Shown here in pieces: positions 4,936-48,393 of a stretch of DNA of 64,000 nucleotides (the first letter of the stretch is position 1; each line of letters opens with the position of its first letter). Source of the DNA: Nostoc sp. Its GTDB lineage: Bacteria; Cyanobacteriota; Cyanobacteriia; Cyanobacteriales; Nostocaceae. A program made the translations under genes and the position numbers. The notes beneath the pieces were generated by a model. It ran no database searches, was not told the DNA's origin, and was given only the letters and a program-made list of their open reading frames with translations. The DNA is taken from the NCBI RefSeq assembly GCF_041747015.1, contig NZ_JBGTFY010000387.1:3167-67166 (forward strand), written 5' to 3'.

Positions 4936-5116
4936 TTGATTTTTGGTCAAGATTATGCTTCTGGTTCGATACCGAGCGATCGCAAAGCAGCTTATTGTGA
5001 GACATCGCAGTTTTTCTGTAAAGCTAGGTCAGGCTGCCAGGACTTTTGGACGTAAATTGTTGGAAGCTAGATAAAGGCGATCGCTTTTTCTAACTTTTTC
5101 TAATTAGGCTATAAGA

Positions 5117-6055
5117 TTATTGAATTTTTGGCCCGATGTACCCAATAATGATTTGGCCAGTCCCTAATTCTGTAGAAAAATGAAGCCGCCAAGCTCCTGC
5201 ACCAGTCATTCTTAAGTGTAAGCTGAATATACGATACACATCATCAGGACACTTAAAGGTTAGCTTATCCTTTAAACTTTGAAGCCTAGAGTCACTTTCT
5301 GGAGTAACTTTACTGGCAACAAGGTCTAAATCGAAATCTCCATCTGTCCAAGTTTTACAACAGTTCTCTAGCTCAAACAACTTTCTGACAATTTGTCGTA
5401 ACATCGGGCTACCATTGCCAAGGCTTTGTATTTGTTGACCGACACTTTCACAAAAGCTGAGAGAGGGAAATAAATCTTTTTTGCGTTGCCACAAATTACA
5501 ACCATCACGAACCCCCGTTTTCAGACGTTCCTGTATCCAAGAAAGATTTTCCTTTACGTTCTTTATGGTGCTAGCATGAGTAACTGTGACTGTATCTAAA
5601 TTCAAATTATCATCTTCAAGCCAAGTATATTCCAGTGAAATACTATTAAATTCCCATTTTTGATCTGAGTTTATGCTTAATGCTAACGATTCAAGTAGAT
5701 AGGCAATTCCCAAGCCTTCACTTTTTTCTCCTTCATACAGAAAATCTGAGAGTATATTTTTATTTTCAATATCTGAATCTTGAATATCTGCGAGAAAAGG
5801 TGTCTTTGCTGCTGTCAGAATAAATCGTATATCGTCTCTATTTACAGTTTTATCTATTAACCAGTTAGATAACGAATAATTATCTGCTAATACAGTATTG
5901 TAGAATTCATGATGAGTGCGAATTATTGGCTTAACACCTAGCTCTGCTGCTTCGCGTGCGGTCAGAATTAATTCTGACATTCTTTGTTTAGCCATCTGAA
6001 TATCATTAGCAGTAGATCGCAAAGATAACTCATTCAATACCATTTCCAAGTCCAT
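5117..6055 (-). CDS. Hypothetical protein, third gene of the DUF262-ATPase operon, with a C-terminal RelE/HigB-like motif
   Basis: 312-aa ORF starting 3 nt after the ATPase stop codon. AT-rich. I recognise no family for the N-terminal ~260 aa. The C-terminus reads AGAWRLHFSTELGTGQIIIGYIGPKIQ. Confidence 0.6.
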   Translation of the reverse strand: MDLEMVLNELSLRSTANDIQMAKQRMSELILTAREAAELGVKPIIRTHHEFYNTVLADNYSLSNWLIDKTVNRDDIRFILTAAKTPFLADIQDSDIENKNILSDFLYEGEKSEGLGIAYLLESLALSINSDQKWEFNSISLEYTWLEDDNLNLDTVTVTHASTIKNVKENLSWIQERLKTGVRDGCNLWQRKKDLFPSLSFCESVGQQIQSLGNGSPMLRQIVRKLFELENCCKTWTDGDFDLDLVASKVTPESDSRLQSLKDKLTFKCPDDVYRIFSLHLRMTGAGAWRLHFSTELGTGQIIIGYIGPKIQ

Positions 6056-6058
6056 CTG

Positions 6059-7255
6059 CTACGCATCCCTTGGCTTAAGTAAAGTTATTAAATCTTTTTC
6101 CCATTCATCAAAAAATCCATCAGGCCAATAATCAATTCTGCCGTTACGATCAATTTTTGGTGATATTACTTCGGTAAAAACTTGTCCTTGTTTTTCTTGA
6201 CGCTGAAAGTAATGTAATTGCAAATCTTTGGGATTAAGTTTGCCGCCATGAACTGCAAGCCGAATTCCGTTTAAAACATGATCGCTATGAGTTTCTATCA
6301 CCACTTGCACACCACAACTAGCAGCCAGCGCTAACAACTCACCCATTTTGGCTTGTCCTTTAGGATGAAGATGTGCCTCTGGATTTTCAATTAAAATCAG
6401 TGTATCTGGAGGGGATGCAAGTACAGCTACAATAATTGGTAAGGTGTAAGTAATTCCAAATCCAACATTAGTATTACGGTATCTGCTACTTACATCTTTT
6501 CCCATTTCAAATGAGTATTGCAAACTCATTAAATCAACGCCTGGAATTGGGTTGACATGAATTCTTGTACCAGGGCTGATTTCTCCCATCCATGCCTCCA
6601 CTTGATCCTTCAAAGATAGCGACTCTGCTTTTGGATGGCTTAATTTGCTTACTTCACCTTGTTTAGGAGGTTCAAAAGCTTTAGCAACCGTTTGTGAACC
6701 TATTTGCTTAAGTCCAACTGTATTTATGTTCGATTTACCAAAAACGGTAAGGAAATGTGCTGTATATTCACCTCTAGTACCAATTTGAAAATGTTGATGT
6801 ACTAAATCCTCTGACATTTCAAAGACATTACGAGGGCCAAGCCGTTCTGCTTGCAGATAGTGAAAGTAATCTCCAAACAGGCTAAATTCATGTATTTCTC
6901 TCGTTATTGGTGCAGTATCACTGCGGAGAACATCTGCTTGTTCATCATATCTAAAGCGCCATGTCCATGTTTTTCTTTCTTGATAATCTACTACAAGTTC
7001 AAAACTAATAATTTCTTCCTTGGCTTCCTCAAATAAAGCATCTTTAGCCGTACCAATACGCACTAAATCACCATTTAGAGCTAGACCTTTTGTTTGCAAA
7101 AGTCTCTGTTGATAAGACTGGCGCAATAGAAGTAATGACTGTAATACTGAAGATTTACCCATACCATTAAGTCCAGATAATAGAGTTAGTGATCTAAACT
7201 CTAGTAACTGATTTTCAAAGGGTTTAAAATTCTTTATATGTAGTGAATGTATCAT
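6059..7255 (-). CDS. ABC/OLD-type AAA ATPase (AAA_15/AAA_21-like, DUF3696-like C-terminus)
   Basis: Walker A GLNGMGKSS. Walker B with the characteristic LILIENPEAHLHP. H-loop ETHSDH. C-terminal YWPDGFFDEWEKD. Its start overlaps the upstream stop codon (ATGA). Confidence 0.8.
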   Translation of the reverse strand: MIHSLHIKNFKPFENQLLEFRSLTLLSGLNGMGKSSVLQSLLLLRQSYQQRLLQTKGLALNGDLVRIGTAKDALFEEAKEEIISFELVVDYQERKTWTWRFRYDEQADVLRSDTAPITREIHEFSLFGDYFHYLQAERLGPRNVFEMSEDLVHQHFQIGTRGEYTAHFLTVFGKSNINTVGLKQIGSQTVAKAFEPPKQGEVSKLSHPKAESLSLKDQVEAWMGEISPGTRIHVNPIPGVDLMSLQYSFEMGKDVSSRYRNTNVGFGITYTLPIIVAVLASPPDTLILIENPEAHLHPKGQAKMGELLALAASCGVQVVIETHSDHVLNGIRLAVHGGKLNPKDLQLHYFQRQEKQGQVFTEVISPKIDRNGRIDYWPDGFFDEWEKDLITLLKPRDA

Positions 7256-8385
7256 GATAATACTGATTTTATAACTTGTTCTATCTCATTCAATCTGTGT
7301 AATACAGTCTTAAGGGTTCCCGTACTCCTGTAGATAGTAGTATTAAATTTTCCCTCATTAGTCAAATCTATTATTTTTTGTTTTACAATTTCTTTCCTTT
7401 CTTTAAGAATCTCAATTTCTTGAGCATTAAGTTTATATAAATTAACTGACCAAGCTTCAAACAATGCCTTGTTGATGGGATAGCGTTTTGCTCCTTTTTT
7501 CATTTTCCGAAAAGCATCTTTACCAAATACCTCAAATGCTAAATTCATTAAACTTAGGAAATTATTAGTTATTATTTTTATTTCTTCGTCTGACATGAGA
7601 TTTATATATGCCATAGCTTGATATAATATTTTTTTAAAGCTTGTATTTCTTTGAAATAATTCTTGATTTTTTATCAAAAATACTAAAACTCTAAGTATGC
7701 ACTCTCGATCAGCCATTCTATCTGATTTTATTCCTTTGTCAGTAGCTTTTTGGAATTCAGATGATACGGCTAAATCTCCTAATAACTTCGTTGCTTTACC
7801 TTGATTTAAAGCATGACGAATTTCCTGGGTTGATAGAGATAAACCACTGGTATTAATCCGCTCAAAAATAGCCTGTTTAAATTCACTATCTGTACCCGGT
7901 TCAAGAAAAATAACTGTGACAAGAGTTTCTTCTATACGACGTTGATAATTTCGTGGAATTTCGTCATATATCTTGCCATTAAATAGAGTAAATGATTCTA
8001 GTCCAGTTAGCTTAAGTGTTTTATCTATCACAAACTCTTTTAAAGTGGTTAGCCTTTGTAAACCATCTATCACTAACCATTTTTCTTCATTAGTTGCATC
8101 AATATAGAATGCCGGTATGGGAATACGAAGTAAAATTGACTCAATAAGCCGACTTTGAGCAATTTTATTCCAAACGGATTTTCGTTGGAATTCAGGAGAT
8201 AATTCAATTTCATCATTCCTAATTCTACCCATTAAGTAGTCAACACTAATCTGTCTAGTTTCAACCCTAATTTTAGTAGGGTTGAATGGTTCACTTATCT
8301 CATCTTCTTCTATTGCGATATCATCTTCTTCTATTTTTGTTTCTTCTTTAAATAATTCAGAGTTAAGGTGGTTCAGATTTGTCAT
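7252..8385 (-). CDS. DUF262 (ParB/Srx-fold nuclease/NTPase-like) domain protein
   Basis: Motifs PEFQRKSVWNKIAQSRLIESILLRIPIPAFY and WLVIDGLQRLTTL match the DUF262 core (the DGQQR-type motif). There is no DUF1524/HNH half. Confidence 0.8.
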   Translation of the reverse strand: MTNLNHLNSELFKEETKIEEDDIAIEEDEISEPFNPTKIRVETRQISVDYLMGRIRNDEIELSPEFQRKSVWNKIAQSRLIESILLRIPIPAFYIDATNEEKWLVIDGLQRLTTLKEFVIDKTLKLTGLESFTLFNGKIYDEIPRNYQRRIEETLVTVIFLEPGTDSEFKQAIFERINTSGLSLSTQEIRHALNQGKATKLLGDLAVSSEFQKATDKGIKSDRMADRECILRVLVFLIKNQELFQRNTSFKKILYQAMAYINLMSDEEIKIITNNFLSLMNLAFEVFGKDAFRKMKKGAKRYPINKALFEAWSVNLYKLNAQEIEILKERKEIVKQKIIDLTNEGKFNTTIYRSTGTLKTVLHRLNEIEQVIKSVLS

Positions 8386-8748
8386 GGCACATACTCCTTA
8401 GCCTGAAAAACTAGTTACTAGTACTTGATAGTTTACCTGGATGACTTACCTTGATAGTACTACCTTCTAGCATTAGCAGTTGTAATCAACATAAATGATC
8501 GTACTCTTAACACCTATAAATACCAAAGCAGCCAGAATACACAAGCTGCTTTAGTAAAAATATGATCACTCGTTTACTTGGCTACCACCAAATTAACTGG
8601 TGCAATCCCGGCTAAATCTAAAATCGGGGCGATCGCCTCTGGTAACGTCAGGACAATCGCACTTTAATAGCCAAAAAGCTATAGACATCGCTCTCTAAAT
8701 ATTTTCCACTCAGAGAGATATGAAAAACAATTCGGAATTAAGTACTTG

Positions 8749-8851
8749 TAGCGGTTCTCGTTTACGTAAGGTACACCCGTAAGGGTACGGCATTGCCGTG
8801 TCCCTACACTTGGCAATATAATCTTATACTGCATCTAAATGAGAACCGCTA
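8749..8851. repeat. MITE-like element with 16-bp terminal inverted repeats
   Basis: tagcggttctcgttta (8749-8764) pairs with taaatgagaaccgcta (8836-8851) with one mismatch. The interior contains a further GC-rich hairpin. Confidence 0.6.
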
Positions 8852-9268
8852 TATGCCCAATAATAAATGACATTCGGCGAACCATTGTACTTGTAAATCC
8901 AGACCAAGTTCTAGTTTTGGGTGGCGGGAGCTTTCCAGAGTTTTTAGTATCTCTGTCATTTAGTACAGCGATTAATAACGCACCTCAAGCCTTCAAACAA
9001 GGAGTTATTGGAGGAAATATTCACAAATCTGATTAAATAAATCCCCCGCAAATCTAAATAATATAGAGCCATCGGCTGATTATGGGCTGCTGCCTCCAGT
9101 GATACATTGAGTCAGAATCTCAATGAATGCATTCTTAGTCAGAGACTGGGAACGAGGAAAGCCTCATCAAGCTATGTTTTTAGGATTTGTGTGTACACCG
9201 TAGCTTTTTAAAGTGGTTGGGGGATCGAACTCTTATCCAAACCGTATTGGCTCCATTCTTCCTTTTAC

Positions 9269-13398: not shown

Positions 13399-14874
13399 AT
13401 GAAATTACTACGAGTCCAAGTTCCAGATTTTCGCATCTTAAAGAACGTTGATATAACTTTTGAACCAGAATTTATCCCCAGTATTTTCCCCCTTGGTAGT
13501 CAAAATGGTGGTGGTAAAAGTACACTTTTGCAATTAATTTTTGTTTTATTGCATTGTTCTAGTGATTCTGACAAAAAAGAGTTTGTGAAAAATATACTTT
13601 ATGGATTTACGATTAATAACAATTCTAACAAGAGAGTATTAGCCATAATTGATATCTGGAATGAGGATAAAATTGTACAGCTTGAATTTTTATCTTATAA
13701 TGACTCTTTTCTTAGGGAGTTATTAATATCAAATGATAAGACTGAGGTTGACAATGATAATTATCTACAATTCTCTGCTTCAAATCAATTAGAGAAGATT
13801 ATCAATAAAATTTCAATTACTGAAAAAGAAATATATGATTTAGAGAGAGCTATTATTAAATTAGATAGTGTGAGACAAATTGAGACTTTTGAGAGCGTTG
13901 AGGAAAGAATTTATGTACTGAGAGAGTTAATCCAAAGACTTCAAAAATTTGAATTTAGAACTTTAAGATTAGCAATAGCAAATATATCTATAGAAAGACT
14001 TCAAGATGAAGTTCAAACAAGACTAGATATATTTAAATTAACTCTTCAAAAATATTATGAAGAACGTGAGCAGATTGAACGTATCTTACAAAGAGTTTTA
14101 AAATACTTACAATCAGAAAAGCTACTATATATCTGTAATTATTCAGCTAATGGTAATAAAGATGAAGAGGAAGTTTTACTTTGCCGTATAAATAACATAG
14201 ATATGAACGAAGTAGAAATATTTATGAAAGAGTTATCACAAAAAATATTTATTGCGGCTCCTTCTACCCAAGTTTTTCTTTTTAATTCTAAAGAATCTAG
14301 AAAACTATTATTTAAACAACAGGATAACGAAACTGACTACTATTCACAGCTTAAATCAGCCAAATCTAAACTACCAGGTTTTTTTACTTATGATTTTCTG
14401 GCTGTAGATATCCTTATTGAAGCCTTTAAGTCTGCTCGAGACAAAGACTTTACAGAAGCTATAACAAAAGGTGAGTATGGTAATAGTTACAAAGCACTAA
14501 TAAATGATTTAAATATAATATTGTTTAATAAAAAAATAAATATAGATACAGATTTGTCAGGTGTAAGTTTTAAATTAGATAAAGATGGTTTAGAACTATA
14601 TCCTGAAGACCTCAGTCATGGTGAGTTGAAAAGATTGAGCATTTATATATGGATAAAGTACCATAATATAGAAAATGCAATTGTACTCATGGACGAAATT
14701 GAAATAGCATTTCATCCAGATTGGCAATATCAAATAATTGCAGACCTCAATCAATGGTCGCCAAGTAATCAATATATTCTGGCAACTCACTCATACGAGT
14801 TATGTCAAGCTCTTACACCTGCCCACGTTAAGGAACTAGAACCAAAACTTTTAAAGCAAGAAGTTAAAAATTAA
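13399..14874 (+). CDS. ABC/SMC-like ATPase with a coiled-coil insertion (AriA-like)
   Basis: Walker A GSQNGGGKST, signature-like LSHGELKRLS, Walker B AIVLMDEIEIAFHP, H-loop LATHS. A helical insert of roughly 250 aa lies between the lobes. AGGAG sits upstream of the ATG. Very AT-rich. Confidence 0.75.
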   Translation: MKLLRVQVPDFRILKNVDITFEPEFIPSIFPLGSQNGGGKSTLLQLIFVLLHCSSDSDKKEFVKNILYGFTINNNSNKRVLAIIDIWNEDKIVQLEFLSYNDSFLRELLISNDKTEVDNDNYLQFSASNQLEKIINKISITEKEIYDLERAIIKLDSVRQIETFESVEERIYVLRELIQRLQKFEFRTLRLAIANISIERLQDEVQTRLDIFKLTLQKYYEEREQIERILQRVLKYLQSEKLLYICNYSANGNKDEEEVLLCRINNIDMNEVEIFMKELSQKIFIAAPSTQVFLFNSKESRKLLFKQQDNETDYYSQLKSAKSKLPGFFTYDFLAVDILIEAFKSARDKDFTEAITKGEYGNSYKALINDLNIILFNKKINIDTDLSGVSFKLDKDGLELYPEDLSHGELKRLSIYIWIKYHNIENAIVLMDEIEIAFHPDWQYQIIADLNQWSPSNQYILATHSYELCQALTPAHVKELEPKLLKQEVKN

Positions 14875-14876
14875 AT

Positions 14877-15827
14877 ATGAGTCTTAACCCAGAAGAACTA
14901 ATACAACATTGTGAAATAATCATTAGCTCTCGTAGAATTAAAAATAAGATCGTTGTACTGTGCGAAGGCGAAGGTGGTATCTGGGACACTGAAGGCAGAC
15001 CGTCACCTCAGTCATATAGCAAGATGGAACAGATGCCAGATGCTAACTTTTACAAGGCGTGTGTTCCAAAATTATGGAGTCAATATCGACCAGAGTTTTT
15101 TAACTGCGGAGATCGTAAAGATGTATTAGATACATATTTTACTCTTTCAAAGTTGCATGATGAAAATAAGGATAACTCTTATTTAAGTTTAGAAAAACTT
15201 TTTGCAATTGTAGATGTTGATTTACAAACACAAAATATAGCAAAAGAATATAGTTATAGTTTTTCAGATACAGAAGCAATTTTCTGTGATCTTTATACAA
15301 AACTCAATATAAATGAAGAAAATGCAAAACAGCATCGTATATGGGTTACGGGTTTAATACATAAAGAAGCATATTTTATCATACCTGAACTACAACCAAT
15401 ATTTGATAGTTTTTCTACAGTTTATAATAGTAGTTCTCTAGTACTTAGAAATATTTATCTGACTATGGCAGATACTATAATTACTGATTATGATTTAAAA
15501 AGTAATTTATCAAAAGTATCTAATCGCATTAGTCATTTCTCTGGATTAGATTGTACTGCAATAGATAAATTGAGAGATTCATGGAGAGAACAGTTTCAAA
15601 ATGCTCAAAATGATACGCAAAAGAATGAGTTAATTTTAGCTTTATTGACACTCAAAAAAGCTAAGTATTATTGGAACCAAATTCAACCACCAAGTGACTG
15701 GACTTCTTCAGTTCAGACATTTAAAGATCAACTCTTGTTAGAAATAGGAAGATTTTATTCAGAACAAAGTAATCATACTAAATATCATATTCCTTGCTTT
15801 TTTAAAATCTTAAGAGAATTTGCTTAA
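14877..15827 (+). CDS. DUF4435/TOPRIM-like protein (AriB-like candidate effector)
   Basis: Starts 2 nt after the ATPase stop. Motifs IVVLCEGEGG, FFNCGDRKDVL, LFAIVDVDLQ and HKEAYF match my memory of the DUF4435 pattern (EG..D, cGgk, DxD, H.E.Y). Confidence 0.6.
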   Translation: MSLNPEELIQHCEIIISSRRIKNKIVVLCEGEGGIWDTEGRPSPQSYSKMEQMPDANFYKACVPKLWSQYRPEFFNCGDRKDVLDTYFTLSKLHDENKDNSYLSLEKLFAIVDVDLQTQNIAKEYSYSFSDTEAIFCDLYTKLNINEENAKQHRIWVTGLIHKEAYFIIPELQPIFDSFSTVYNSSSLVLRNIYLTMADTIITDYDLKSNLSKVSNRISHFSGLDCTAIDKLRDSWREQFQNAQNDTQKNELILALLTLKKAKYYWNQIQPPSDWTSSVQTFKDQLLLEIGRFYSEQSNHTKYHIPCFFKILREFA

Positions 15828-21582: not shown

Positions 21583-22254
21583 TTAATTAGAAAACATTCC
21601 AATGCTAGGTAACAGTAGATACGTTTCACTCTTCATCAGAATGGAGAGTCCCAACCAGATTAATACGAAGGGAAAGATTTTCCGACCATAGCGAGCTAGA
21701 ACGGGAGCCATTAGAGGGTTACGAGTCAGGTTGTAAGATAGAAAACACCACAGCCCAACTGTTAAGTAGCAAACAGACAAAATTACTCCTAAACTTGGAA
21801 GATTGCTACTAGCAAATAACGGCACGTAGATACCAATATTATTTCCTCCATTGGCAATGGTGACAGCAGAAACGCGATAGGTTTGAGGGTCGCGGATAGT
21901 CGCCAATAGCGATTTTTTCTGGCGCTGAGGTTTTACATGATTTAAGTTAATTGATACAGCTTGTACTGCCTCTTCCTCATTTTCTCTAGTCATGAGATGA
22001 TTAATACCAATAGCGATTGGAAGAAAACCTAGTAATCCAATCCAGGTATGTGGAATGATTAGACCACCGAAAAACCCAGGAAGACTGGCAAATACCAAAG
22101 CAGTGAATCCCAGAAATTCACCGATAATAATGTGTTTGGGACGAAAGGTATGATTAACTTTTCCAAAGAATGCCGTCAAATACAAATTATCATCAAAGGT
22201 AGTTGCAAAAGCAGCAGAAATTCCGATAATTAGAGTACCAATTAACCAACTCAT
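21583..22254 (-). CDS. CadD-family (cadmium resistance transporter-like) membrane protein, paralog 1
   Basis: FATTFDDNLYL...RPKHIIIGEFLGFTALVFASLPGFFGG...TIANGGNNIGIYVPLF aligns with the other three paralogs and with my memory of S. aureus CadD. Start taken at MSW (22254) by paralog alignment. Confidence 0.75.
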   Translation of the reverse strand: MSWLIGTLIIGISAAFATTFDDNLYLTAFFGKVNHTFRPKHIIIGEFLGFTALVFASLPGFFGGLIIPHTWIGLLGFLPIAIGINHLMTRENEEEAVQAVSINLNHVKPQRQKKSLLATIRDPQTYRVSAVTIANGGNNIGIYVPLFASSNLPSLGVILSVCYLTVGLWCFLSYNLTRNPLMAPVLARYGRKIFPFVLIWLGLSILMKSETYLLLPSIGMFSN

Positions 22255-22688
22255 GTTTGTTGCTCGCAATGATTTAATTCTGGTTTTCTAGTCCCTCTCT
22301 AATTTTAAAGTTGAGGGTATATTAGGCGTTTGTTCCACTGTTTTGCCTAGCATCAGCAGACAGATAAGTTTTGGATGTTCTAGAGGCGATCGCTATCAAA
22401 TCAAATAGTGATTTTTTCTCAGCAAGATCCTTTAACCTTGTCTGAACTCAATATATTTCCTTTGACTCAATAAAAGCAAATATTCTTTCTTTTCAAAACG
22501 ATAAACAAAATTTATGGATAATTGCAAAAATCAAACTACCATTCAAAACAGCCCAAAAACTCTGATTAAAAGGTTTTTGGGCCATTGAAAATTCCGTTTA
22601 GTGGTACTATTGCTCTTGATATTGAAGCGAATTTAAATAATCGCAGAGGAAAAAAACTGATTTAGAAATTTTATAGATAACAGAAAAT

Positions 22689-23348
22689 CTATTTTATCCC
22701 AGGTAATAGGGCAAATGTACCCCTTTCATACATAATGTAGAAACCTAAGCTAATCAATATAAATGGTACAGCAGTTTTACCATAACGAGTTAAAATATAG
22801 ACCATTGTGGCTTGACGAGCTAATAAGTAAGCAATAAAATACCAAACTCCTGTCATAATCAGAAAAACTATCAGTATTACCAGTAAGCTCGTAAGACTTT
22901 GACCAGAGAATAAGGGAATATAAATGCCAATATTATCACCACCATTAGCAAAGGTAACTGCCGCAAATTTGTAAGTTTGGGGACTTAAAATACTCAAGAT
23001 AAAAGTTAATACAGGATTATTATTAGTCGATGGCTTTAAATTAGTTGTAACAGTCTGAACTTCTGGATTTTCTGTTTCTTGATTCAGTAATTGCTTGATA
23101 CCGATTGCTATTGGCAAAATTCCCAATAATCCTATCCAGGCTCTTGGTACTAATAAACTTCCAAAGAAACCTGGTAAACTGGCAACAACGATGGCGGAAA
23201 AACCAAGATACTGTCCAACAAAAATATGCCGACGGCGAAATTGAGTATTTATCTCTGAAAAAAATAGCAGTAGTATAATAATGTCGTCAATATTGGTGGC
23301 GGCAAAGGCAATAATTGCTTCAGTAATAGTTGTACTAATTTTACTCAT
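22689..23348 (-). CDS. CadD-family membrane protein, paralog 2
   Basis: ATNIDDIIILLLFFS...RRRHIFVGQYLGFSAIVVASLPGFFG...FANGGDNIGIYIPLF. Confidence 0.8.
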   Translation of the reverse strand: MSKISTTITEAIIAFAATNIDDIIILLLFFSEINTQFRRRHIFVGQYLGFSAIVVASLPGFFGSLLVPRAWIGLLGILPIAIGIKQLLNQETENPEVQTVTTNLKPSTNNNPVLTFILSILSPQTYKFAAVTFANGGDNIGIYIPLFSGQSLTSLLVILIVFLIMTGVWYFIAYLLARQATMVYILTRYGKTAVPFILISLGFYIMYERGTFALLPGIK

Positions 23349-23444
23349 TTAGGGTTGTCAGAAATACTGCTTAACCTATAAAATAAGAATTTTAAGCTGC
23401 ATATCATAGTTAGGTACTTAATAAACAAATCAGGATATATTGAA

Positions 23445-24122
23445 ATGAGTGAGTTGATTACTACACTCTTAGTTGGAGTCTCAGCCTTCATTGCCACTAA
23501 TATTGATGATATCGTTATTTTATTACTGCTGTTTTCGCAAATAGATTCTAACTTCAGGTATCGACACATTGTTGCTGGTCAATATTTAGGCTTTACAGTG
23601 TTAGTGATTGCCAGTCTTCCTGGGTTATTCGGTGGGTTAATCATACCACCCAATTGGATTGGACTGCTGGGATTAATACCAATATCAATGGGCATCAGCA
23701 GTTTAATCAATCGAGAAGAAAACGAAACTCAAGAGGTTGCAGTTGCAACAGTAGAATATCAAGATTCAAATGCTACAAGTCTTTTTAACGTCCAAACTTA
23801 CAGCGTTGCAGCTATCACGATCGCTAATGGAAGTGATAATATTAGCGTCTATGTGCCGTTATTTGCTAGTAGTAATTTAGGCAAGTTTCTAATTATTATT
23901 GGAGTATTTTTTATATTAATAGCAGTTTGGTGTTATTTAGCTTATAAATTGACTTATCAAACAAAAGTTGCAGATATTTTAAGTCAATATAGTAGTTATA
24001 TTTTACCTTTTGTGTTAATAATATTAGGTGGATTGATTATTTTAACAACTGAAGCTTTAAGCCTAATAAAACTAGCAGCAAGTTGTGTTTGTTTAATGAT
24101 TTTAGTGAAAAAAAATAGTTGA
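23445..24122 (+). CDS. CadD-family membrane protein, paralog 3
   Basis: ATNIDDIVILLLLFS...YRHIVAGQYLGFTVLVIASLPGLFGG...IANGSDNISVYVPLF. Confidence 0.8.
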   Translation: MSELITTLLVGVSAFIATNIDDIVILLLLFSQIDSNFRYRHIVAGQYLGFTVLVIASLPGLFGGLIIPPNWIGLLGLIPISMGISSLINREENETQEVAVATVEYQDSNATSLFNVQTYSVAAITIANGSDNISVYVPLFASSNLGKFLIIIGVFFILIAVWCYLAYKLTYQTKVADILSQYSSYILPFVLIILGGLIILTTEALSLIKLAASCVCLMILVKKNS

Positions 24123-27779: not shown

Positions 27780-28553
27780 TTATGTTTGGCGGTTAACTAG
27801 GGTAGCACTAGCTTGGTCAACAGGCATCAGCACAACTTCATTAATATTGACATGAGGCGATCGCGTCACACAAAAAAATATCACATCAGCCACATCATCT
27901 GCCGTCAGCGGGGTAACTCCCTGATAGACTTTGTTGGCGCGTTCAATATTCCCGTGAAAGCGCACCTCGCTAAATTCCGTTTCTACCATCCCCGGATCAA
28001 CGGAAGTCACACGCACAGGGGTACCTAACAAGTCTTGTTTTAAACCTTCAGAAATTGCCCTTACCGCAGCTTTCGTAGCACAGTAGACATTACCGCCAGG
28101 ATAGGTTTGATGTCCGGCAATTGAACCTAAATTTACCACATGACCGCGATCGCGACTTACCATTCCAGGAACAACATAACGGGACAAGTAAAGTAAACCC
28201 TTAATGTTAGTATCAATCATTTCTTCCCAGTCTTGAAAGTTGCCTTCGTGCAACTTGTCTAAACCGCGACTTAGACCAGCATTGTTAATTAGAATGTCAA
28301 TGTCAGACCAGGAAGGGGGTAGAGTAGAAATTGCAGATTCAACAGCAGTGCGATCGCACACATCTAACTGTAACAAATGAATTTCAACACTAAATTCTTT
28401 ACTGAGAGCATCTGCTAGCTGCTGCAAACGTTCTAAACGTCGTGCCGTTAAAATCAGTTTTGCACCCGCACCAGCGAATGTTTTAGCACATGCAGCACCA
28501 ATACCACTGCTTGCACCAGTAATCAAAATGATTTGATTTTGTAGGGAGGTCAT
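27780..28553 (-). CDS. Short-chain dehydrogenase/reductase (YdfG-like NADP-dependent)
   Basis: TGASSGIGAA cofactor motif, NNAG, and the catalytic YCATKAA (YxxxK). Confidence 0.85.
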   Translation of the reverse strand: MTSLQNQIILITGASSGIGAACAKTFAGAGAKLILTARRLERLQQLADALSKEFSVEIHLLQLDVCDRTAVESAISTLPPSWSDIDILINNAGLSRGLDKLHEGNFQDWEEMIDTNIKGLLYLSRYVVPGMVSRDRGHVVNLGSIAGHQTYPGGNVYCATKAAVRAISEGLKQDLLGTPVRVTSVDPGMVETEFSEVRFHGNIERANKVYQGVTPLTADDVADVIFFCVTRSPHVNINEVVLMPVDQASATLVNRQT

Positions 28554-28918
28554 TGTTAGTCAAATGTCAAGAGTCCAGTGTCAATTGTCCAATAATTTGG
28601 AACTCAAGCGAATTACAGTAGACATATAGTAAAAAAAAATGTAGACATATAGCACTTCTACATCTCTACAAGGGTTCTGGATAACGCATATTTAATTTCT
28701 GGAGATGTCTTTTAGAAGTCTTCTGCTATTAACCTCAGAATTCATTCTGAGGCAAGGCAGTTGTTAGAATGGAACTTGTTCGCCAATTCTGAGAATTATG
28801 AGTTTTTATCTGGAAGTTTTAAGTTCTCAGAATAAAAGTTAGACTCACCTTGACAGAGATAGGGTGTAGGGGAACCCCCACACCCCTCCTGAAGTGGCTT
28901 GGTCATCAGAAGATGGAA

Positions 28919-31759
28919 CTAAACAGTGATAAAAGTTTGAGCCAAGAGCGTTGTTGAAGTGATATTATCTAAATTTACCAACACTTGATTGTTAGAACTA
29001 TCCACAATCGAGGTTTGACTTCCTTGTTGCTGTATCAACAATTGACCAAACTTCAGTCCACCTGACAACGCAATCTTGTCCTCACCTACTTTAAAGTCAG
29101 TAATGGAGTCTGTGCCCTCACCAGAAGCGAATACAAAGGTATCAACACCATAACCCCCTGTAAGTACATCATTGCCATTGCCCCCATAAAGCCAATCATT
29201 GCCTGCATTCCCGTTTAGTAAGTCATCGCCGATACCACCAAATAGCGTATCGTTTCCGTTATCACCCGAAAGCTTGTCATTGCCACTATCGCCGTAGAGC
29301 AGGTCATCACCATCTTGTCCCCAGAGACTATCGTTTCCGTCGCCTCCGAAAAGTTGGTCATTTTTTAGATTACCTACGATGGTGTCGTTACCACCAAACC
29401 CATAAATCTTGTTGGCTGGGGCATTGCCTTTTAAGTACTCAGAACTATCAGTGCCATTGAGAAGATAAATTTCGGTAGCAAGAGCGGGTTTAACTGTGCC
29501 TTTGATGGCAAAGTCAAAGGTGCTTTCGTTACTATCGTTGTTGGTCAAACTAAAGCTGCCAGTAAAGGTTCCAGGCGTAGGTGTATTCGTGTTGAGTGCC
29601 ACCGTTATACTTTTTGAAGCGTTGGCAGCCACGGTATATGGAAAAGCTCCTACAAAACTAAAGCCGTCGGGAAGTTTGAAATTACTCAGGTTGAGCGTAG
29701 CTGTACCCGTGTTCTTGATGGTGAAAGTTTTGGTTACGGTGCTGCCGAAAGCGACGTTACCAAAGTCAATGGCAGTGGTGCTGCCATCTGCAATGTCAAC
29801 TGTGCCATTGAGAACTTGAATTTCGGGAGCAGGAGCGGGTTTAACTGTACCGCTAATAGCAAAGTCAAAGGGGCTTTCGTCAATATCGTTGTTGCTCAAA
29901 CTGAAACTGCCAGCATAGGTTCCAGGTGTTTTCGTATTGAGTGCCACCTTTATACTCGTCGAAGTCTTGATAGCCAAGGTAGCTGGAAGAGTTCCTACCA
30001 AACTAAAGCCGTCGGGTTGTTTGAGATTACTCAGGTTGAGTGCAGATGTACCGGTATTCTTGATGGTGAAAGTTTTGGTGACGGTGCTGCCGAAAGCGGC
30101 GTTGCCAAAGTCAATGGCAGTGGTGCTGCCATCTACAATGTCAAGTTTGCCATTGAGAACTTGAATTTCGGGAGCATTAACTTTACCGCTCATCGCAAAG
30201 TTAAAGGGGCTTTCGTTACTATCGTTGTTGCTTAAACTGAAGTTGCCAGTGTAAATTCCGGCAGTGGTTGTATTTAGTGCTACCGTTATATTCGCCGAAG
30301 TCTTGGCAGCCAAAGTAGCTGGAAGAGTTCCTACCAAACTAAAGTCGTCGGATAGTTTGAGATTACTCAGGTTGAGTGCAGCTATACCTGTGTTCTTAAT
30401 AGTAAAAGTTTTGGTTAGGATGCTACCAATAATGGCCTCGCCAAAGTTAATGGCGGTAGTGCTGTCATCTACAATGTCAATTGTGCCATCAAGAACTTGA
30501 ATTTCGGGGGTAGGAGTATTATTGGTGGGGGCTTCGTATGCGCCAATGTCAATCAATACACTGCCATTGCCATCGCCATCTTTGGGAAGGTTCTTAGTGA
30601 TGCCATTGAAAGCACTAGAACCAGCATCAATCGCGGCACTTTCAGGTTTAAGCCTAAAGTCACCGTTGGCTGCATTAACAAACAACGGGTCTTTGTTTAA
30701 GATATTTCCTGAGCCTGTAGTTTTAAAAGCTCCGTTGTAAGCAAGGTTATTGTTAAATGAATAGTTACTGGAATTAACAATGGAATTAGTTTCATTTCCA
30801 GCGCTTGCATACATGATATTGTTATAGACTCGAACATTTTTAGCACTGTTAAGAAAAATCTCTCCGGTGGGGATTACTTGTGAATTTTGATAAGTTGTAT
30901 TATTCACAATGTCCACAGGGTTTTCTCCCTTGAAAATTTGAATAGCTGCCCCACCATTTTTATAAATTACATTGTTACTGATTAAGGTTTTACCAGTGTA
31001 AGCAACATCTTCAAAATAAGAAGTGTCAAGCATTATTCCATGACCCTCAGTTATTTCTCCTACCTTTTCCCAAGGGACTAATGATTTATTATCAAAAGAA
31101 GTGTTACCTCGAATAATTACTTTGTAATCTGTTACATTATTATCAGAATTCCAAAGTTGACCTAATGAGATTCCTTGGTTCCCGAATGGGCTATACCAAG
31201 CATTTCCAGAAACAATATTTTTTTCTATTGTAATATAATCTGCTTTCCCTGCTCCAATGCCCGCGCCTGGAAACTTAGAGACATTGTTATTTCTGATTGT
31301 AATGTGATGTGAGTGGATCTCTTGGTTTCCGGCGATGTTAGCAATACCAACACTAATACCATTTCCAGATGTTGCGGAATTACTCAAGTTCAATTTTTGT
31401 TCAAGCGCGTATTCTAATGTAATTTCATCTCGCGCTCCCACCAGCGTCAGCCCTTCAATTACTAAGTATGAGGAACCTTTAATTGATATAGCATTCCAAA
31501 TGTTTTTGTGCGCTTCTAAAATAGGTGTATGACCAGATAGCGCCGTAAATGTAATCGGCGCATCAGCCCTACCCTGCTTATTGTTAATACCCAGAATAGT
31601 AGCGTAAGGTGAGGTGTAAGTACCATTCATGACGTAGACGGTATCACCTGCTTGCACTAAGTCTGCGGCTTTTTGAAGGGTGCGAAACGCTTCTCCCTGG
31701 TTCAAGCCATTACTTTGATCATTGCCTGTTCCAGAAACGTAGTATGTTGTGCCAGCCAT
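28919..31759 (-). CDS. Large secreted protein: N-terminal parallel beta-helix, three ~115-aa Ig-like repeats, C-terminal RTX calcium-binding nonapeptides
   Basis: N-terminus YYVSGTGNDQSNG...VYVMNGTY and NN-rich beta-helix turns. Three PEIQVLNG...TFTIKNTG...SLSNND repeats. C-terminal GGDGNDSLWGQDGDDLLYGDSGNDKL repeats, typical of T1SS substrates. Confidence 0.85.
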   Translation of the reverse strand: MAGTTYYVSGTGNDQSNGLNQGEAFRTLQKAADLVQAGDTVYVMNGTYTSPYATILGINNKQGRADAPITFTALSGHTPILEAHKNIWNAISIKGSSYLVIEGLTLVGARDEITLEYALEQKLNLSNSATSGNGISVGIANIAGNQEIHSHHITIRNNNVSKFPGAGIGAGKADYITIEKNIVSGNAWYSPFGNQGISLGQLWNSDNNVTDYKVIIRGNTSFDNKSLVPWEKVGEITEGHGIMLDTSYFEDVAYTGKTLISNNVIYKNGGAAIQIFKGENPVDIVNNTTYQNSQVIPTGEIFLNSAKNVRVYNNIMYASAGNETNSIVNSSNYSFNNNLAYNGAFKTTGSGNILNKDPLFVNAANGDFRLKPESAAIDAGSSAFNGITKNLPKDGDGNGSVLIDIGAYEAPTNNTPTPEIQVLDGTIDIVDDSTTAINFGEAIIGSILTKTFTIKNTGIAALNLSNLKLSDDFSLVGTLPATLAAKTSANITVALNTTTAGIYTGNFSLSNNDSNESPFNFAMSGKVNAPEIQVLNGKLDIVDGSTTAIDFGNAAFGSTVTKTFTIKNTGTSALNLSNLKQPDGFSLVGTLPATLAIKTSTSIKVALNTKTPGTYAGSFSLSNNDIDESPFDFAISGTVKPAPAPEIQVLNGTVDIADGSTTAIDFGNVAFGSTVTKTFTIKNTGTATLNLSNFKLPDGFSFVGAFPYTVAANASKSITVALNTNTPTPGTFTGSFSLTNNDSNESTFDFAIKGTVKPALATEIYLLNGTDSSEYLKGNAPANKIYGFGGNDTIVGNLKNDQLFGGDGNDSLWGQDGDDLLYGDSGNDKLSGDNGNDTLFGGIGDDLLNGNAGNDWLYGGNGNDVLTGGYGVDTFVFASGEGTDSITDFKVGEDKIALSGGLKFGQLLIQQQGSQTSIVDSSNNQVLVNLDNITSTTLLAQTFITV
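29480..30508. repeat. Three tandem ~340-bp coding repeats inside the RTX protein gene
   Basis: Each unit starts with the gaaattcaagttct (EIQVL) motif on the minus strand, near 30508, 30172 and 29828. The protein units are highly similar. Confidence 0.8.
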
Positions 31760-32836
31760 GAGGGTAACTCCAAATATGTGTAAGGTGAATTGGTAGCGCA
31801 GTAGTTATTTGAAAAGGTCATCTGTCTGGACTTTTCAAGACAGTCACAGTTGTCCGATCGCAACTTGAAATCGTACCGATTGTAAACGCTTTTGTAAAAT
31901 TGGAAATTTTTTCTTTTGCCAACCGCTGATGGTTAAACTAGAGATATCGATACTATCAATCGTCAGGGTTTTGTTAAGGGTGATCGGACGATTGTCTGAT
32001 TGGCAAGGCTAAAGTCGAATTAAATCGTATTTCCATCTCTAGCAGATGCGATCGCAGCTACTATATTCGATACGGTGATTTATATTAAGCATGGTAATTA
32101 CTCTGAACTTTATCCGTTGTCTTAGGTCAGAAGGTTGCCAAATCGGCATAGTAAAACTCACCCCTGGCTGATAACTCAGGACTTTAAGTCACAGTAGTCA
32201 AAGTTGAATTTGTTGAAACTTTAGTGAGTTGATTCCTTAAGTTAAAGGGACTGATGTAACAACTTAATTGAAGCTGTTCTCAGCCGTACAACCGAGCTTT
32301 GTTTCCTTCATTTAGACTAACCTTCACAAATAACAATTGATATCAGTAAATACCCGGTTTTTAGTTGCTTTTTTTACAACAAAGCGAGAAAAACTATGGA
32401 GATATTGTGGTAAAGTCCTGTAAATTTTCAAGTGATATGCGAATGAAGAGCAGTTTGGGCAAGGATTTGATGAAGTTTCTCTCAAATTTAGTCGGCGCTG
32501 TTCCACAAGATATTGCTTATGGTTGAATGACGCTAAGATAAATCGATACGAGGCTACGGAGAGAAGTTTGAGAGGTTGTTTTAAAAATATAAATATATTG
32601 ATTACCCGTTTCCTTTGTAACGCCCTTGACAAAGAGTTTTAGCCTTAACCCCAAACGTATCGGCTTAAGCCCCTTGTCTCACCAAGTTTGATTTTGTGCT
32701 GTTTCACAAAGAATAAAATTGGTAATAGGAGCCTTTAGAGATATGGCTGTGTATGCTCTATTATCCTTAAGGTAAAAGTAAAGAAACTGTTACAGTCAAC
32801 TTACAACAAACATCTGTCACGGAAGCAATTTAATTT

Positions 32837-45735: not shown

Positions 45736-48393
45736 ATGTCAACACTCGTCATCGTCGAATCTCCAACCAAAGCTCGTACCATTCGCAACTACCTGCCAGC
45801 AGGCTATCGGGTAGAGGCATCTATGGGTCATGTACGTGACCTACCCCAGTCGGCTAGTGAAATTCCCGCCGCTGTCAAAGGGGAAACATGGGCGCAGCTA
45901 GGGGTGAATGTGGACGCCGACTTTGAACCGGTATATGTTGTCCCGAAAGACAAAAAGAAAATTGTCACCCTGCTCAAAGAAGCCCTCAAAGATGTCGATG
46001 AACTGATTCTGGCAACGGACGAAGACCGGGAAGGTGAAAGCATTAGTTGGCATTTATACCAGCTACTCAAGCCGAAAGTTCCGACTAAGCGGATGGTGTT
46101 TCACGAAATTACCGAAGACGCGATCAAAAAAGCTCTGAAAAACTGCCGCAATATTGATGAGCAGTTGGTTCGCGCCCAAGAAACGCGGCGGATTTTAGAT
46201 CGACTGGTGGGCTACACTCTGTCTCCCCTGCTATGGAAAAAAATCGCCTGGGGATTATCTGCTGGGCGAGTCCAATCTGTAGCTGTGCGACTTTTGGTTA
46301 CTAGGGAACGCCAACGCCGCGCTTTCCATGAAGGTACTTACTGGGATTTGAAAGCTAGTTTAGAAAAGGAAAAAACCCCCTTTGCGACTCAGTTGGTGAC
46401 ATTAGCAGGAACCAAAATAGCTAATGGTAGCGATTTTGACGCAGCGACCGGGCTAATTACCGCAGGTCGCAATGTCTTGTTGCTAAACGTTGACCAAGCA
46501 GTAGCCCTCAAGGAACGCTTGACAGGAAAAACCTGGAGTGTTACCGAGATCGAGGAACGCCCAGTAACGCGCAAACCCTCGCCACCGTTCACAACTTCGA
46601 CGTTGCAGCAAGAATCTAACCGGAAACTGCGCCTCTCAGCCCGTGACACGATGCGGGTTGCCCAGAATTTGTACGAGCAGGGGTATATTACCTATATGCG
46701 GACAGATTCGGTACATTTGTCAGATCAAGCGATCGCAGCAGCTCGAAGTTGTGTAGAAAAGCTTTATGGTAAACAATACCTCAGTCCCCAACCCCGGCAA
46801 TACACCACCAAATCCAAAGGCGCACAAGAGGCGCACGAAGCAATTCGCCCAGCAGGTAGCAGCTTCCGCACCCCCCAAGAAACTGGTTTGGGCGGTCGGG
46901 AACTTGCCCTCTACGATTTGATTTGGAAGCGTACCGTCGCCTGTCAAATGGCTGATTCCCGACAAACTCAAATTAGCGTGCAGTTGCAAGTTGAGGATGC
47001 TGGATTCCGTTCTTCTGGCAAGCGAATCGAATTTCCCGGATATTTACGTGCCTACGTTGAAGGTTCAGATGATCCAGAAGCAGCACTGGAAGACCAGGAA
47101 GTAATTTTGCCTAATCTAAAAGTGGGAGATCACCCAAATTGTACAGAACTGGAAGCAGTTGGTCACGAAACTCAACCGCCAGCTAGGTACACTGAGGCTA
47201 CTTTGGTGAAAACTTTAGAAAGCGAAGGTATCGGTCGTCCCAGTACCTACGCCAGCATCATTGGTACGATCATCGATAAAGGTTACGCCCAATTGGTGAC
47301 TAACGCCCTTATTCCCACCTTTACCGCTTTCGCCGTCACCGATTTGCTGGAAAAACATTTCCCCGACATCGTTGATCCCAGTTTTACCTCGAAAATGGAG
47401 CAAACCCTCGATGATATTGCCACAGGTGAAGCGAAATGGCTACCTTACTTGCAGAAATTCTATTTGGGAGAGAAAGGGCTGGAAACCCTAGTTAAAGAAC
47501 AGGAAAGTAAAATTGACGCCACCAAAGCTAGGACTGTAGAACTGGAGAATTTAGATGCCAAAGTCCGTATTGGTAAATATGGCCCCTACATTGAAGTTGA
47601 AAATGGTGACGGTGTTATTACTGCCTCAATTCCCAAAGACCTGACACCAGCTGACCTAGACCCCAAACAGGTAGAAACATTGCTGCGGCAAAAAACCACA
47701 GGGCCAGACCAGGTAGGTCGGCATCCCGAAACTGGTGAACCGATTTATGTGAAAATTGGTGCTTATGGGCCTTATGTTCAATTAGGTGACAAAACTGACG
47801 AAAACCCTAAACCGAAACAAGCCTCCCTGCTCAAAGGTGTCACCCCGGAAACCGTTACTTTGGAAATGGCTGTTGGTCTGTTGGCATTACCCCGGACATT
47901 GGGAGTTCATCCAGGCAGTGGCGGCAAAATCCAAGCTAGTTTGGGACGCTTTGGGCCTTATGTCGTTCATGACCAAGGTAAGGAGGGGAAAGACTACCGC
48001 TCACTCAAAGCTGCGGATAATGTATTGACAATTACCGTAGAACGTGCATTGGAATTGTTGTCTGAACCAAAAAAGGGACGTAGTTCCACCAACAGCAAGT
48101 CTAAGGCAGCCTTACGCGAATTGGGTGCACATCCAGAAGACAGCGAGACAATCAACATTTACGATGGTCCCTACGGTCCTTACATTAAGCATAGCAAAAC
48201 TAATGTGAGTATCCCAGAAGGTCAATCGGTAGAAGATATAACGCTGGCTGAGGCACTGAAATTGTTAGAGAGTAAAGCATCGACAACAAAATCAACTCGC
48301 AAAACGAGTAAATCAACGAGTTCGAGTTCTAAATCTAAGTCAACTGCTAAGTCTTCAACGACTGTTGCGAAAAAAAAGAGCGCAGAAGGCTAG
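45736..48393 (+). CDS. topA: DNA topoisomerase I
   Basis: TOPRIM start [23 protein letters not shown], the active-site region [10 protein letters not shown], and a long C-terminal repeat domain with a Lys/Ser-rich tail. Confidence 0.95.

Follow-up and report, generated by a model that had tools for sequence, protein, structure and literature searches.

The DNA examined here, referred to as the window, is a 64,000-nucleotide stretch of a Nostoc sp. contig (NZ_JBGTFY010000387.1, positions 3,167 to 67,166), and positions 5117 to 8385 of the window hold three genes, nsnA, nsnB and nsnC, whose products match the components of the Menshen anti-phage system. All three open reading frames (ORFs) are intact and lie on the minus strand. 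The first gene, nsnA (7252..8385), encodes a protein of 377 amino acids with the makeup of a Type I Menshen sensor, a ParB-like DUF262 NTPase domain followed by a C-terminal DNA-binding (ParBDB) region. The nsnB gene (6059..7255) encodes a 398-amino-acid ATPase of the ABC/OLD class that ends in a DUF3696 helix and is the predicted signal transducer. The nsnC gene (5117..6055) encodes the 312-amino-acid effector, made up of an alpha/beta domain at the N-terminus and a small domain at the C-terminus. As read from the sequence, the stop codon of nsnA and the start codon of nsnB overlap in the tetranucleotide ATGA at 7252-7255, and nsnC, directly 3' of nsnB, starts 3 nt past the nsnB stop (TAG cag ATG). 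The three genes are translated as one coupled unit. A leader (8386..8560, minus strand) that is the probable promoter region of nsnA contains the Shine-Dalgarno sequence AAGGAG 8 nt 5' of the nsnA ATG; promoter and terminator scans of the operon region gave consensus matches at background level only. An earlier annotation made from the sequence alone (the first-pass annotation) had given the same coordinates, overlap and spacer.

The identity of the gene products was assessed with PADLOC-DB profiles, with Pfam and by locating the motifs published for Menshen (PMC12065111). The nsnA product matched the PADLOC NsnA profile with an E-value of 4.5e-126 (residues 12-376 on positions 18-383 of a 385-position model), the nsnB product matched NsnB with an E-value of 1.9e-126 (residues 1-394 on positions 1-344 of 345) and the nsnC product matched NsnC with an E-value of 8.6e-93 (residues 1-312 on positions 1-304 of 305). 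Twelve further PADLOC NsnC models also matched the third protein, giving 13 in all. The matches of all three proteins are full length, and the operon is therefore not an uncharacterised system. The first-pass annotation had proposed a candidate uncharacterised defence system and had found the third gene unlike the third component of SspFGH/Menshen-like systems; both statements fell, as the gene content is that of the named system and the third gene encodes a standard NsnC. Its tentative pointer to Menshen-like modules was the right lead, and its description of a coupled defence operon of a DUF262 protein, an ATPase and an effector was borne out by PADLOC and Pfam.

The name Menshen goes back to Millman et al. 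(2022); Li et al. (2025; PMC12065111) dissected the system and catalogued 1,997 loci, of which 8.16% are cyanobacterial. The prototype is the operon of Solibacillus silvestris StLB046, which protects against phages T2, T4, T6 and Fado (PMC12065111), and protection is lost when the DUF262 gene is mutated or deleted (PMC10952713). We consider it very probable that the three-gene block in Nostoc is a functional, canonical Type I Menshen system with the order nsnA-nsnB-nsnC. Two points weigh against this assignment: phage protection by Menshen was demonstrated for the S. silvestris system alone and not for cyanobacterial ones, and the published mechanism is itself a bioinformatic model. The system is already named and catalogued in cyanobacteria and is recognised by standard defence-annotation tools, and its detection matters little as a discovery. 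It does correct the annotation of these proteins, which public records label "DUF262 domain-containing protein" and "hypothetical protein".

The only Pfam domain detected in the NsnA protein was GmrSD_N/DUF262 (9e-23, residues 62-192), and no Pfam match to DUF1524/HNH was obtained along its 377 residues, in agreement with the first-pass annotation. The motifs QRKSVW (67-72), DGLQR (107-111) and FERIN (174-178) fit the patterns QRxxxW, DGxQR and FxxxN, and the C-terminal ParBDB region is covered by the NsnA profile through residue 376. The N-terminal stretch of about 60 amino acids is an acidic loop that precedes DUF262 and contains no Pfam domain; the alignment to the NsnA model begins at residue 12. 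Type I Menshen is defined by an NsnA that lacks an additional N-terminal sensor domain (PMC12065111), whereas Type II Menshen has an added globular sensor domain N-terminal to DUF262. The presence of only about 60 acidic residues before DUF262, without a domain, therefore places the system in Type I rather than Type II. A 100% identical NsnA is listed at NCBI under the name "DUF262 domain-containing protein [Nostoc sp.]". NsnA also matched the PADLOC models PD-T4-2_A (1.4e-35) and REase_II (1.9e-12).

The NsnB protein matched the Pfam families AAA_15 (4e-23), AAA_21 (2e-19) and DUF3696 (1e-20, residues 340-390), as expected from the earlier description of an OLD/ABC-class ATPase with a DUF3696-like tail. 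It has a Walker A motif (GLNGMGKS, 28-35) and an H-loop (ETHSDH, 321-326), and it shows the two deviations that are specific to NsnB (PMC12065111), namely GFG (265-267) as the GxG motif where SGG is usual and a Walker B motif (LILIEN, 286-291) with EN where DE is usual. Thus, all the diagnostic NsnA and NsnB motifs described in PMC12065111 are present and the catalytic motifs are intact. NsnB also matched the PADLOC models for AriA, PtuA, GajA and Old, with E-values of 1e-12 to 1e-26.

The operon shares with Type I Menshen the three genes and their order, an NsnA that combines DUF262 with a C-terminal DNA-binding region and lacks DUF1524, an NsnB with the EN Walker B, the GxG motif and the DUF3696 tail, and a two-domain NsnC of about 310 amino acids with a small C-terminal effector domain. 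It differs from the prototype in being a cyanobacterial (Nostoc) allele and a two-parent recombinant, as described below. PD-T4-2 and Dazbog also have a DUF262/ParB-like presumed sensor without DUF1524, but their partner genes are different and do not include the pair of a DUF3696 ATPase and NsnC, and the PD-T4-2_A match of NsnA is far weaker than its match to the NsnA profile. GmrSD, BrxU and SspE share the DUF262 NTPase domain and the motifs QRxxxW, DGxQR and FxxxN; they are single-chain DUF262-DUF1524 proteins, whereas in Menshen the effector is a chain of its own and an ABC ATPase provides the coupling. Membership in the GmrSD/SspE type IV group was rejected on the basis of the length of NsnA and the missing DUF1524 match. 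Septu (PtuAB), PARIS (AriAB) and Gabija (GajAB) likewise combine an ABC/OLD-type ATPase with a nuclease effector, and the architecture predicted for Menshen, in which an ATPase oligomer clamps an effector, is analogous to theirs. In contrast to these systems, Menshen adds a DUF262 sensor, is predicted to grip its effector by the DUF3696 tail and lacks Toprim and HNH domains.

The linkage of the three genes was followed with a scan based on an NsnC alignment that, with one genome per species, gave 80 loci; the count was limited to those with 2.6 kb or more of upstream DNA, 71 in number. Full-length nsnA and nsnB lay directly upstream of nsnC in the same order in 66 of the 71 loci. The junctions in the window are the modal ones, with a 4-nt overlap of nsnA and nsnB in 51 loci and a 3-nt spacer between nsnB and nsnC in 51 loci. 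The same arrangement was found among the called genes of Cylindrospermum, of Nostoc sp. ATCC 53789 and of two further genomes (L001 and L002). The other five loci were atypical: nsnB was missing in two (L018 and L037), where nsnA abuts a truncated nsnC, nsnA or nsnB was truncated in two (L058 and L078), and nsnA was undetected in one (L025). These five look like deletions or truncations and illustrate the sporadic loss known from the literature. The nsnABC genes of the window are intact and under purifying selection. The ratio of nonsynonymous to synonymous substitution rates (dN/dS), calculated against the nearest relative of each part, was 0.22 for nsnA, 0.13 for 5' nsnB and 0.15 for nsnC, with an overall range of 0.10-0.26, and was 0.17 for the housekeeping neighbour cupA.

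Three other explanations of the operon were weighed against the Menshen assignment. A new, uncharacterised three-gene defence system with a superficial likeness to DUF262/ABC-ATPase systems would agree with the absence of a Pfam, NCBIfam or PDB match for the third protein and with the "hypothetical protein" label of its homologs in public records; we regard it as extremely unlikely because the profile matches run from end to end (E-values of 8.6e-93 to 1.9e-126), gene order, domain architecture and family-specific motifs agree with the published description of Menshen, and cyanobacteria account for 8% of the catalogued systems. The five degraded loci among the 71 and the toxin-like nature of the NsnC effector would fit a decaying or selfish, addiction-type remnant without a present defence role. 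Such a remnant is very unlikely here, given that all three ORFs are full length relative to the PADLOC models, that every catalytic motif is intact and that dN/dS resembles that of cupA. The first-pass annotation had also connected the operon with SspFGH-type phosphorothioate-dependent restriction, tentatively, through DUF262 plus ATPase modules in Ssp systems, and SspE indeed contains DUF262. SspFGH is likewise a three-gene restriction module, but its proteins, among them the Walker-A protein SspF and SspH with its likeness to FtsK-type translocases, are unrelated to those of Menshen, and it acts together with sspBCD and depends on SspBCD phosphorothioation (PMC8092258). No Ssp model occurred in the complete PADLOC match lists of the nsnA and nsnC products or among the best 25 of the 143 PADLOC matches of the nsnB product. 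A scan of ORFs within about 5 kb on either side found no methyltransferase, dnd or ssp gene, as the first-pass annotation had reported, nor was an sspBCD or dnd gene present among the larger ORFs scanned in the remainder of the window. We give the SspFGH reading practically no weight, and the operon is treated below as Menshen.

The NsnC effector and the predicted mechanism

Pfam assigned NsnC to no family, and its 299 homologs, nearly all of them cyanobacterial, are all annotated as "hypothetical protein". An AlphaFold2 model built from a 40-sequence alignment had a predicted local distance difference test score (pLDDT) of 91.2 and a predicted template modelling score of 0.79 and showed the N-terminal alpha/beta domain and the small C-terminal domain. 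When modelled alone (pLDDT 85), the C-terminal 107 residues formed a single helix and then four or five beta-strands, and a helix plus beta-strand topology has been described in the literature for RNases of the BECR/RelE type. Invariant residues of the NsnC family include H280, R290, F293, Y306 and G308, and H292 is nearly invariant. Of these, H280, R290 and H292 could be the "H-R-H triad" of PB-BECR1, the commonest Menshen effector domain (PMC12065111). The NsnC of Menshen is described in the literature as having an inactive PIN-like fold at the N-terminus and a nuclease fold, mostly a BECR RNase, at the C-terminus. By analogy, the N-terminal alpha/beta domain of the Nostoc protein putatively corresponds to the inactive PIN-like domain, and the C-terminal stretch of about 70 amino acids is a putative BECR/RelE-like RNase, an assignment based on the literature, the topology and the conserved residues.

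Several results weigh against these assignments. The H292 position is a tyrosine in several NsnC homologs. Foldseek searches of full-length NsnC and of its C-terminal domain against the PDB returned nothing with an E-value below 0.1, and hidden Markov models (HMMs) of the full-length family and of the C-terminal domain had no meaningful match among PDB sequences. The inactive PIN-like label of the N-terminal domain was not recovered in the fold searches. A Foldseek search of the C-terminal domain against BFVD gave nothing with an E-value below 1, and Pfam scans of the two NsnC halves and of 24 C-terminal domains gave no significant match. The weak PDB neighbours of NsnC included a group of RelE/HigB/YoeB toxins (4fxe_E, 5ycl, 5ifg, 9g12, 2khe, 7v5y and 7v6w), with E-values above 1.

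A profile of the C-terminal domain was also searched against 1.84 billion representative sequences and matched 1,065 clusters. Almost all of those listed were either fragments or proteins of about 310 amino acids that end in this domain, and none of the clusters listed was an annotated stand-alone toxin that links the domain to a named family. The domain is common among NsnC effectors and not exotic.

The published model of Menshen, which draws on AlphaFold 3 predictions (PMC12065111), suggests how the three proteins might act together. NsnA, with its ParB/DUF262 NTPase and DNA-binding C-terminal domain, would sense invading phage DNA and activate the ABC ATPase NsnB, a predicted homotetramer that would transduce the signal. 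NsnB would hold NsnC by its C-terminal DUF3696 helices, and ATP binding or hydrolysis would release NsnC or switch it on. The small C-terminal domain of NsnC, probably a RelE/BECR-type RNase, would then cut RNA and thereby stop phage multiplication.

The main competitor of this RNA-targeting scheme is a modification-dependent, DNA-targeting (Type IV-like) variant of Menshen, in which DUF262 would read modified DNA and NsnC would be a DNase or nickase. DUF262 domains sense modified DNA in GmrSD and SspE, and the validated Menshen system acts on T2, T4 and T6. The DNA of these three phages carries glucosyl-hydroxymethylcytosine. The PD-T4-2_A and REase_II matches of NsnA point in the same direction. 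Against this variant, Pfam scans of the three proteins showed none of the nuclease domains DUF1524/HNH, PLD and Toprim, the sole structural neighbours of the NsnC C-terminal domain, though weak, are the RelE, HigB and YoeB ribonuclease toxins, and the topology and conserved H, R and Y residues fit the BECR RNases of the literature. We consider DNA targeting unlikely and retain it because the RNase fold of the NsnC effector lacks a significant structural or HMM match.

Composition and the cupA-adjacent locus

On one side the operon is followed by the CO2-uptake genes ndhF3, ndhD3 and ChpXY (cupA), and on the other side lie the genes for ketol-acid reductoisomerase (ilvC), NDH-2 and an aminotransferase. 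The G+C content (GC) of the operon is 0.350 compared to 0.408 in the rest of the window, and the GC of third codon positions (GC3) is 0.21-0.29 in the operon genes compared to 0.33-0.47 in neighbouring genes. The HIP1 octamer (GCGATCGC) occurs at 59 sites in the window against 0.23 expected by chance. Sites are present at 4976, 5077 and 8629, and the 3,552-bp gap from 5077 to 8629, within which the operon lies, has none; the AT-rich, HIP1-free block between cupA and ilvC that the first-pass annotation had reported was thus recovered. Of the 58 gaps in the window this one ranks only fourth in size (Poisson P of about 0.03-0.04) and is therefore weak evidence if taken alone. Across related loci the pattern was convincing: in 67 of 69 loci the operon had a lower GC than its flanks, with a mean difference of 6 points, and HIP1 density over the 69 loci was 0.115 per kb in nsnABC compared to 0.78 per kb in the flanks. 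Low GC and HIP1 depletion are a property of the whole nsnABC family in cyanobacteria, and this composition fits horizontal exchange among lineages at a fixed site.

The cupA gene was found 0.1-2 kb downstream of nsnC in convergent orientation in 19 of the 62 loci with enough downstream DNA. These loci came from Nostoc, Cylindrospermum, Rivularia, Cyanomargarita and Oscillatoria, and two additional Nostoc loci, from ATCC 53789 (L085) and from a metagenome-assembled genome (MAG; L087), were arranged in the same way. On the upstream side, trpS-metF was present in at least 11 genomes of the Nostocales type, and trpS-metF and cupA occurred together in Cylindrospermum, Cyanomargarita and Rivularia. 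The upstream flank varies within Nostoc, where it is a peptidase M61 gene in ATCC 53789, a homoserine dehydrogenase gene in L087 and ilvC in the window. Since nsnABC occupies the same cupA-adjacent position in several genera, the site is a long-standing variable locus rather than a one-off insertion. Of the earlier term "islet", the compositional oddity proved real, whereas the implied recent foreign insertion did not stand, the same site being used in five genera. In filamentous cyanobacteria, the Menshen locus next to the cupA/ndhD3/ndhF3 CO2-uptake operon is thus stable and highly polymorphic.

An origin as an island or mobile element was considered and rejected. The searches gave no tRNA, no Rfam element and no phage match, and the repeat that flanks the operon is the HIP1 octamer itself and not a genuine repeat. 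Matches on Nostoc plasmids belong to a different two-gene module, composed of a DUF3696 ATPase and a protein of about 112 amino acids, and not to the trio.

The spacer of about 630 bp between the nsnA leader and ilvC (8635-9268) had no match in related loci or elsewhere in the window, and sequence matching positions 8683-9268 was present in none of 88 related loci. It contains a 16-nt inverted repeat (8749-8764/8836-8851; 94% complementary, 71 nt apart) and, on the plus strand, an ORF of 65 amino acids (8839-9036) without a family match. The Menshen upstream flank differs among Nostoc while the cupA flank is constant, and the spacer marks a rearrangement junction.

In some genomes, nsnC and cupA are separated by toxin-antitoxin genes (ParE/RelB, Uma2). 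The surroundings of Menshen and cupA also held toxin-antitoxin genes and small genes of mobile type in Cylindrospermum PCC 7417 (L003, 11009-12818) and in Nostoc sp. ATCC 53789 (L085, 13435-14136 and 1578-4201), and the gene types in these two genomes were ParE/RelB, Uma2, UPF0175, PIN/PhdYeFM and DUF433. Their presence suggests that the region next to the CO2-uptake operon is a variable hotspot in general.

A two-parent mosaic in nsnABC

The three proteins of the window do not share one nearest relative. NsnC was most similar to the proteins of five lichen-associated Nostoc MAGs (L005-L009), with 93-97% amino acid identity (97% for L005, the MAG P10160), whereas the NsnA and NsnB proteins of these MAGs were only 47-48% and 60-63% identical to those of the window. 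The nearest NsnA and NsnB were those of Nostoc sp. ATCC 53789 (90% and 93%) and the L087 MAG (85% and 94%), whose NsnC proteins were only 39% and 37% identical, respectively, to that of the window.

The mosaic was mapped by DNA identity in 90-nt sliding windows. Identity to ATCC 53789 was 92-100% from about 8535 to about 6435, an interval that covers the leader, nsnA and codons 1 to about 275 of nsnB, and it dropped to 45-66% in nsnC. The leader was 93-96% identical to the region upstream of nsnA in ATCC 53789, with identity of 42-58% beyond about 8595, and it travels with the module of nsnA and 5' nsnB. Identity to P10160 had the opposite course. It was 37-80% upstream of the crossover and 92-100% from about 6315 through most of nsnC, including codons of about 314-398 of nsnB, which encode the H-loop and the DUF3696 tail. 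It was about 80-95% in the nsnC-cupA spacer and cupA (80-88% in the spacer), and a single BLAST alignment to P10160, with about 91% identity, extended from position 6607 of the window down to position 1. The crossover lies in nsnB at 6315..6435 (minus strand), as located by the identity profiles, and corresponds to codons of about 274-314, the Walker-B region, where all alleles are conserved. The window nsnABC is a clean two-parent mosaic that arose by homologous recombination between diverged Nostoc alleles.

As a result of this crossover position, the tail of NsnB was inherited together with its cognate NsnC. The DUF3696 tail of the window is 93% identical to that of P10160 and 73% identical to that of Cylindrospermum (L003), and the NsnC proteins of the two are 97% and 51% identical, respectively; the N-terminal part of NsnB has the opposite pattern with respect to these two genomes. 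In the AlphaFold 3 prediction of Li et al. (PMC12065111), two NsnB DUF3696 tails clamp the N-terminal domain of NsnC, and a tail that was kept with its NsnC is consistent with this predicted interface. Closely related DUF262 domains have been reported together with different NsnC variants (PMC12065111). Re-pairing of sensors and effectors is thus already known, and the mapped junction alone is the new detail.

A possible reading, which we hold tentatively, is that the mosaic records a natural swap of sensor and effector cassettes at the fixed cupA-adjacent hotspot and lends evolutionary support to the interface between the NsnB tail and NsnC. Against it stands the adjacency of the NsnB tail and nsnC, as physical linkage alone could explain their joint inheritance. 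If the crossover reflects a functional constraint, it would be independent evolutionary support for the AlphaFold-predicted DUF3696-NsnC interface, and Menshen sensors and effectors would, if the reading is true, be exchangeable as cassettes at a cupA hotspot that is maintained across cyanobacterial orders. The natural chimera, with its junction at NsnB residues of about 274-314, could guide chimera and interface experiments on the coupling of NsnB and NsnC.

Other elements in the window and on plasmids of relatives

A second AT-rich, HIP1-free islet is located 5 kb from the Menshen operon, at 13399-15827 on the plus strand (GC of 0.29-0.31, GC3 of about 0.19-0.20). It encodes a 491-amino-acid ABC/AAA_21 ATPase, which had only partial C-terminal matches to PtuA, AriA and mad3, and, 2 nt downstream, a 316-amino-acid protein without a Pfam, NCBIfam or PADLOC match. 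The latter has 558 homologs, mostly cyanobacterial "hypothetical proteins", and a homolog directly follows an AAA_15/AAA_21 ATPase in Rivularia PCC 7116 and in Argonema galeatum, in unrelated contexts. As a system, the module was recognised by none of the defence libraries searched. It is a candidate unnamed two-gene defence module of an ATPase plus an effector, and it may be a more novel object in the window than the Menshen operon.

The DUF3696 module of the plasmids was found on several Nostoc and Tolypothrix plasmids. It encodes a "DUF3696 domain-containing protein" of about 361 amino acids, the 3' part of whose gene has about 75% DNA identity to nsnB, and, 4 nt further on, the hypothetical protein of about 112 amino acids; it adjoins HNH endonuclease genes and has no adjacent DUF262 gene. 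Examples are positions 4322-5753 of L091 (plasmid pNsp_d of Nostoc sp. ATCC 53789) and 4325-5750 of L092 (plasmid pNPM8 of Nostoc N6). The module seems to be a two-gene relative of the NsnB-NsnC pair that is distinct from it.

An ORF at 45736-48393 (plus strand) matched DpdF in PADLOC (2.4e-25, partial), and this match was dismissed as spurious; the gene encodes DNA topoisomerase I (Topoisom_bac 9e-119, Toprim and C-terminal repeats). Three adjacent paralogous genes of the Cad family (cadmium resistance transporter) lie at 21583-24122, two on the minus strand and one on the plus strand, and encode proteins of 228, 219 and 225 amino acids. The gene at 28919-31759 (minus strand) encodes a protein of 946 amino acids with a right-handed beta-helix, Ig-like/DUF1573 repeats and C-terminal RTX calcium-binding repeats, which is probably a secreted surface protein. 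This gene sits in a HIP1-free gap (28350-32048) that is among the largest in the window.

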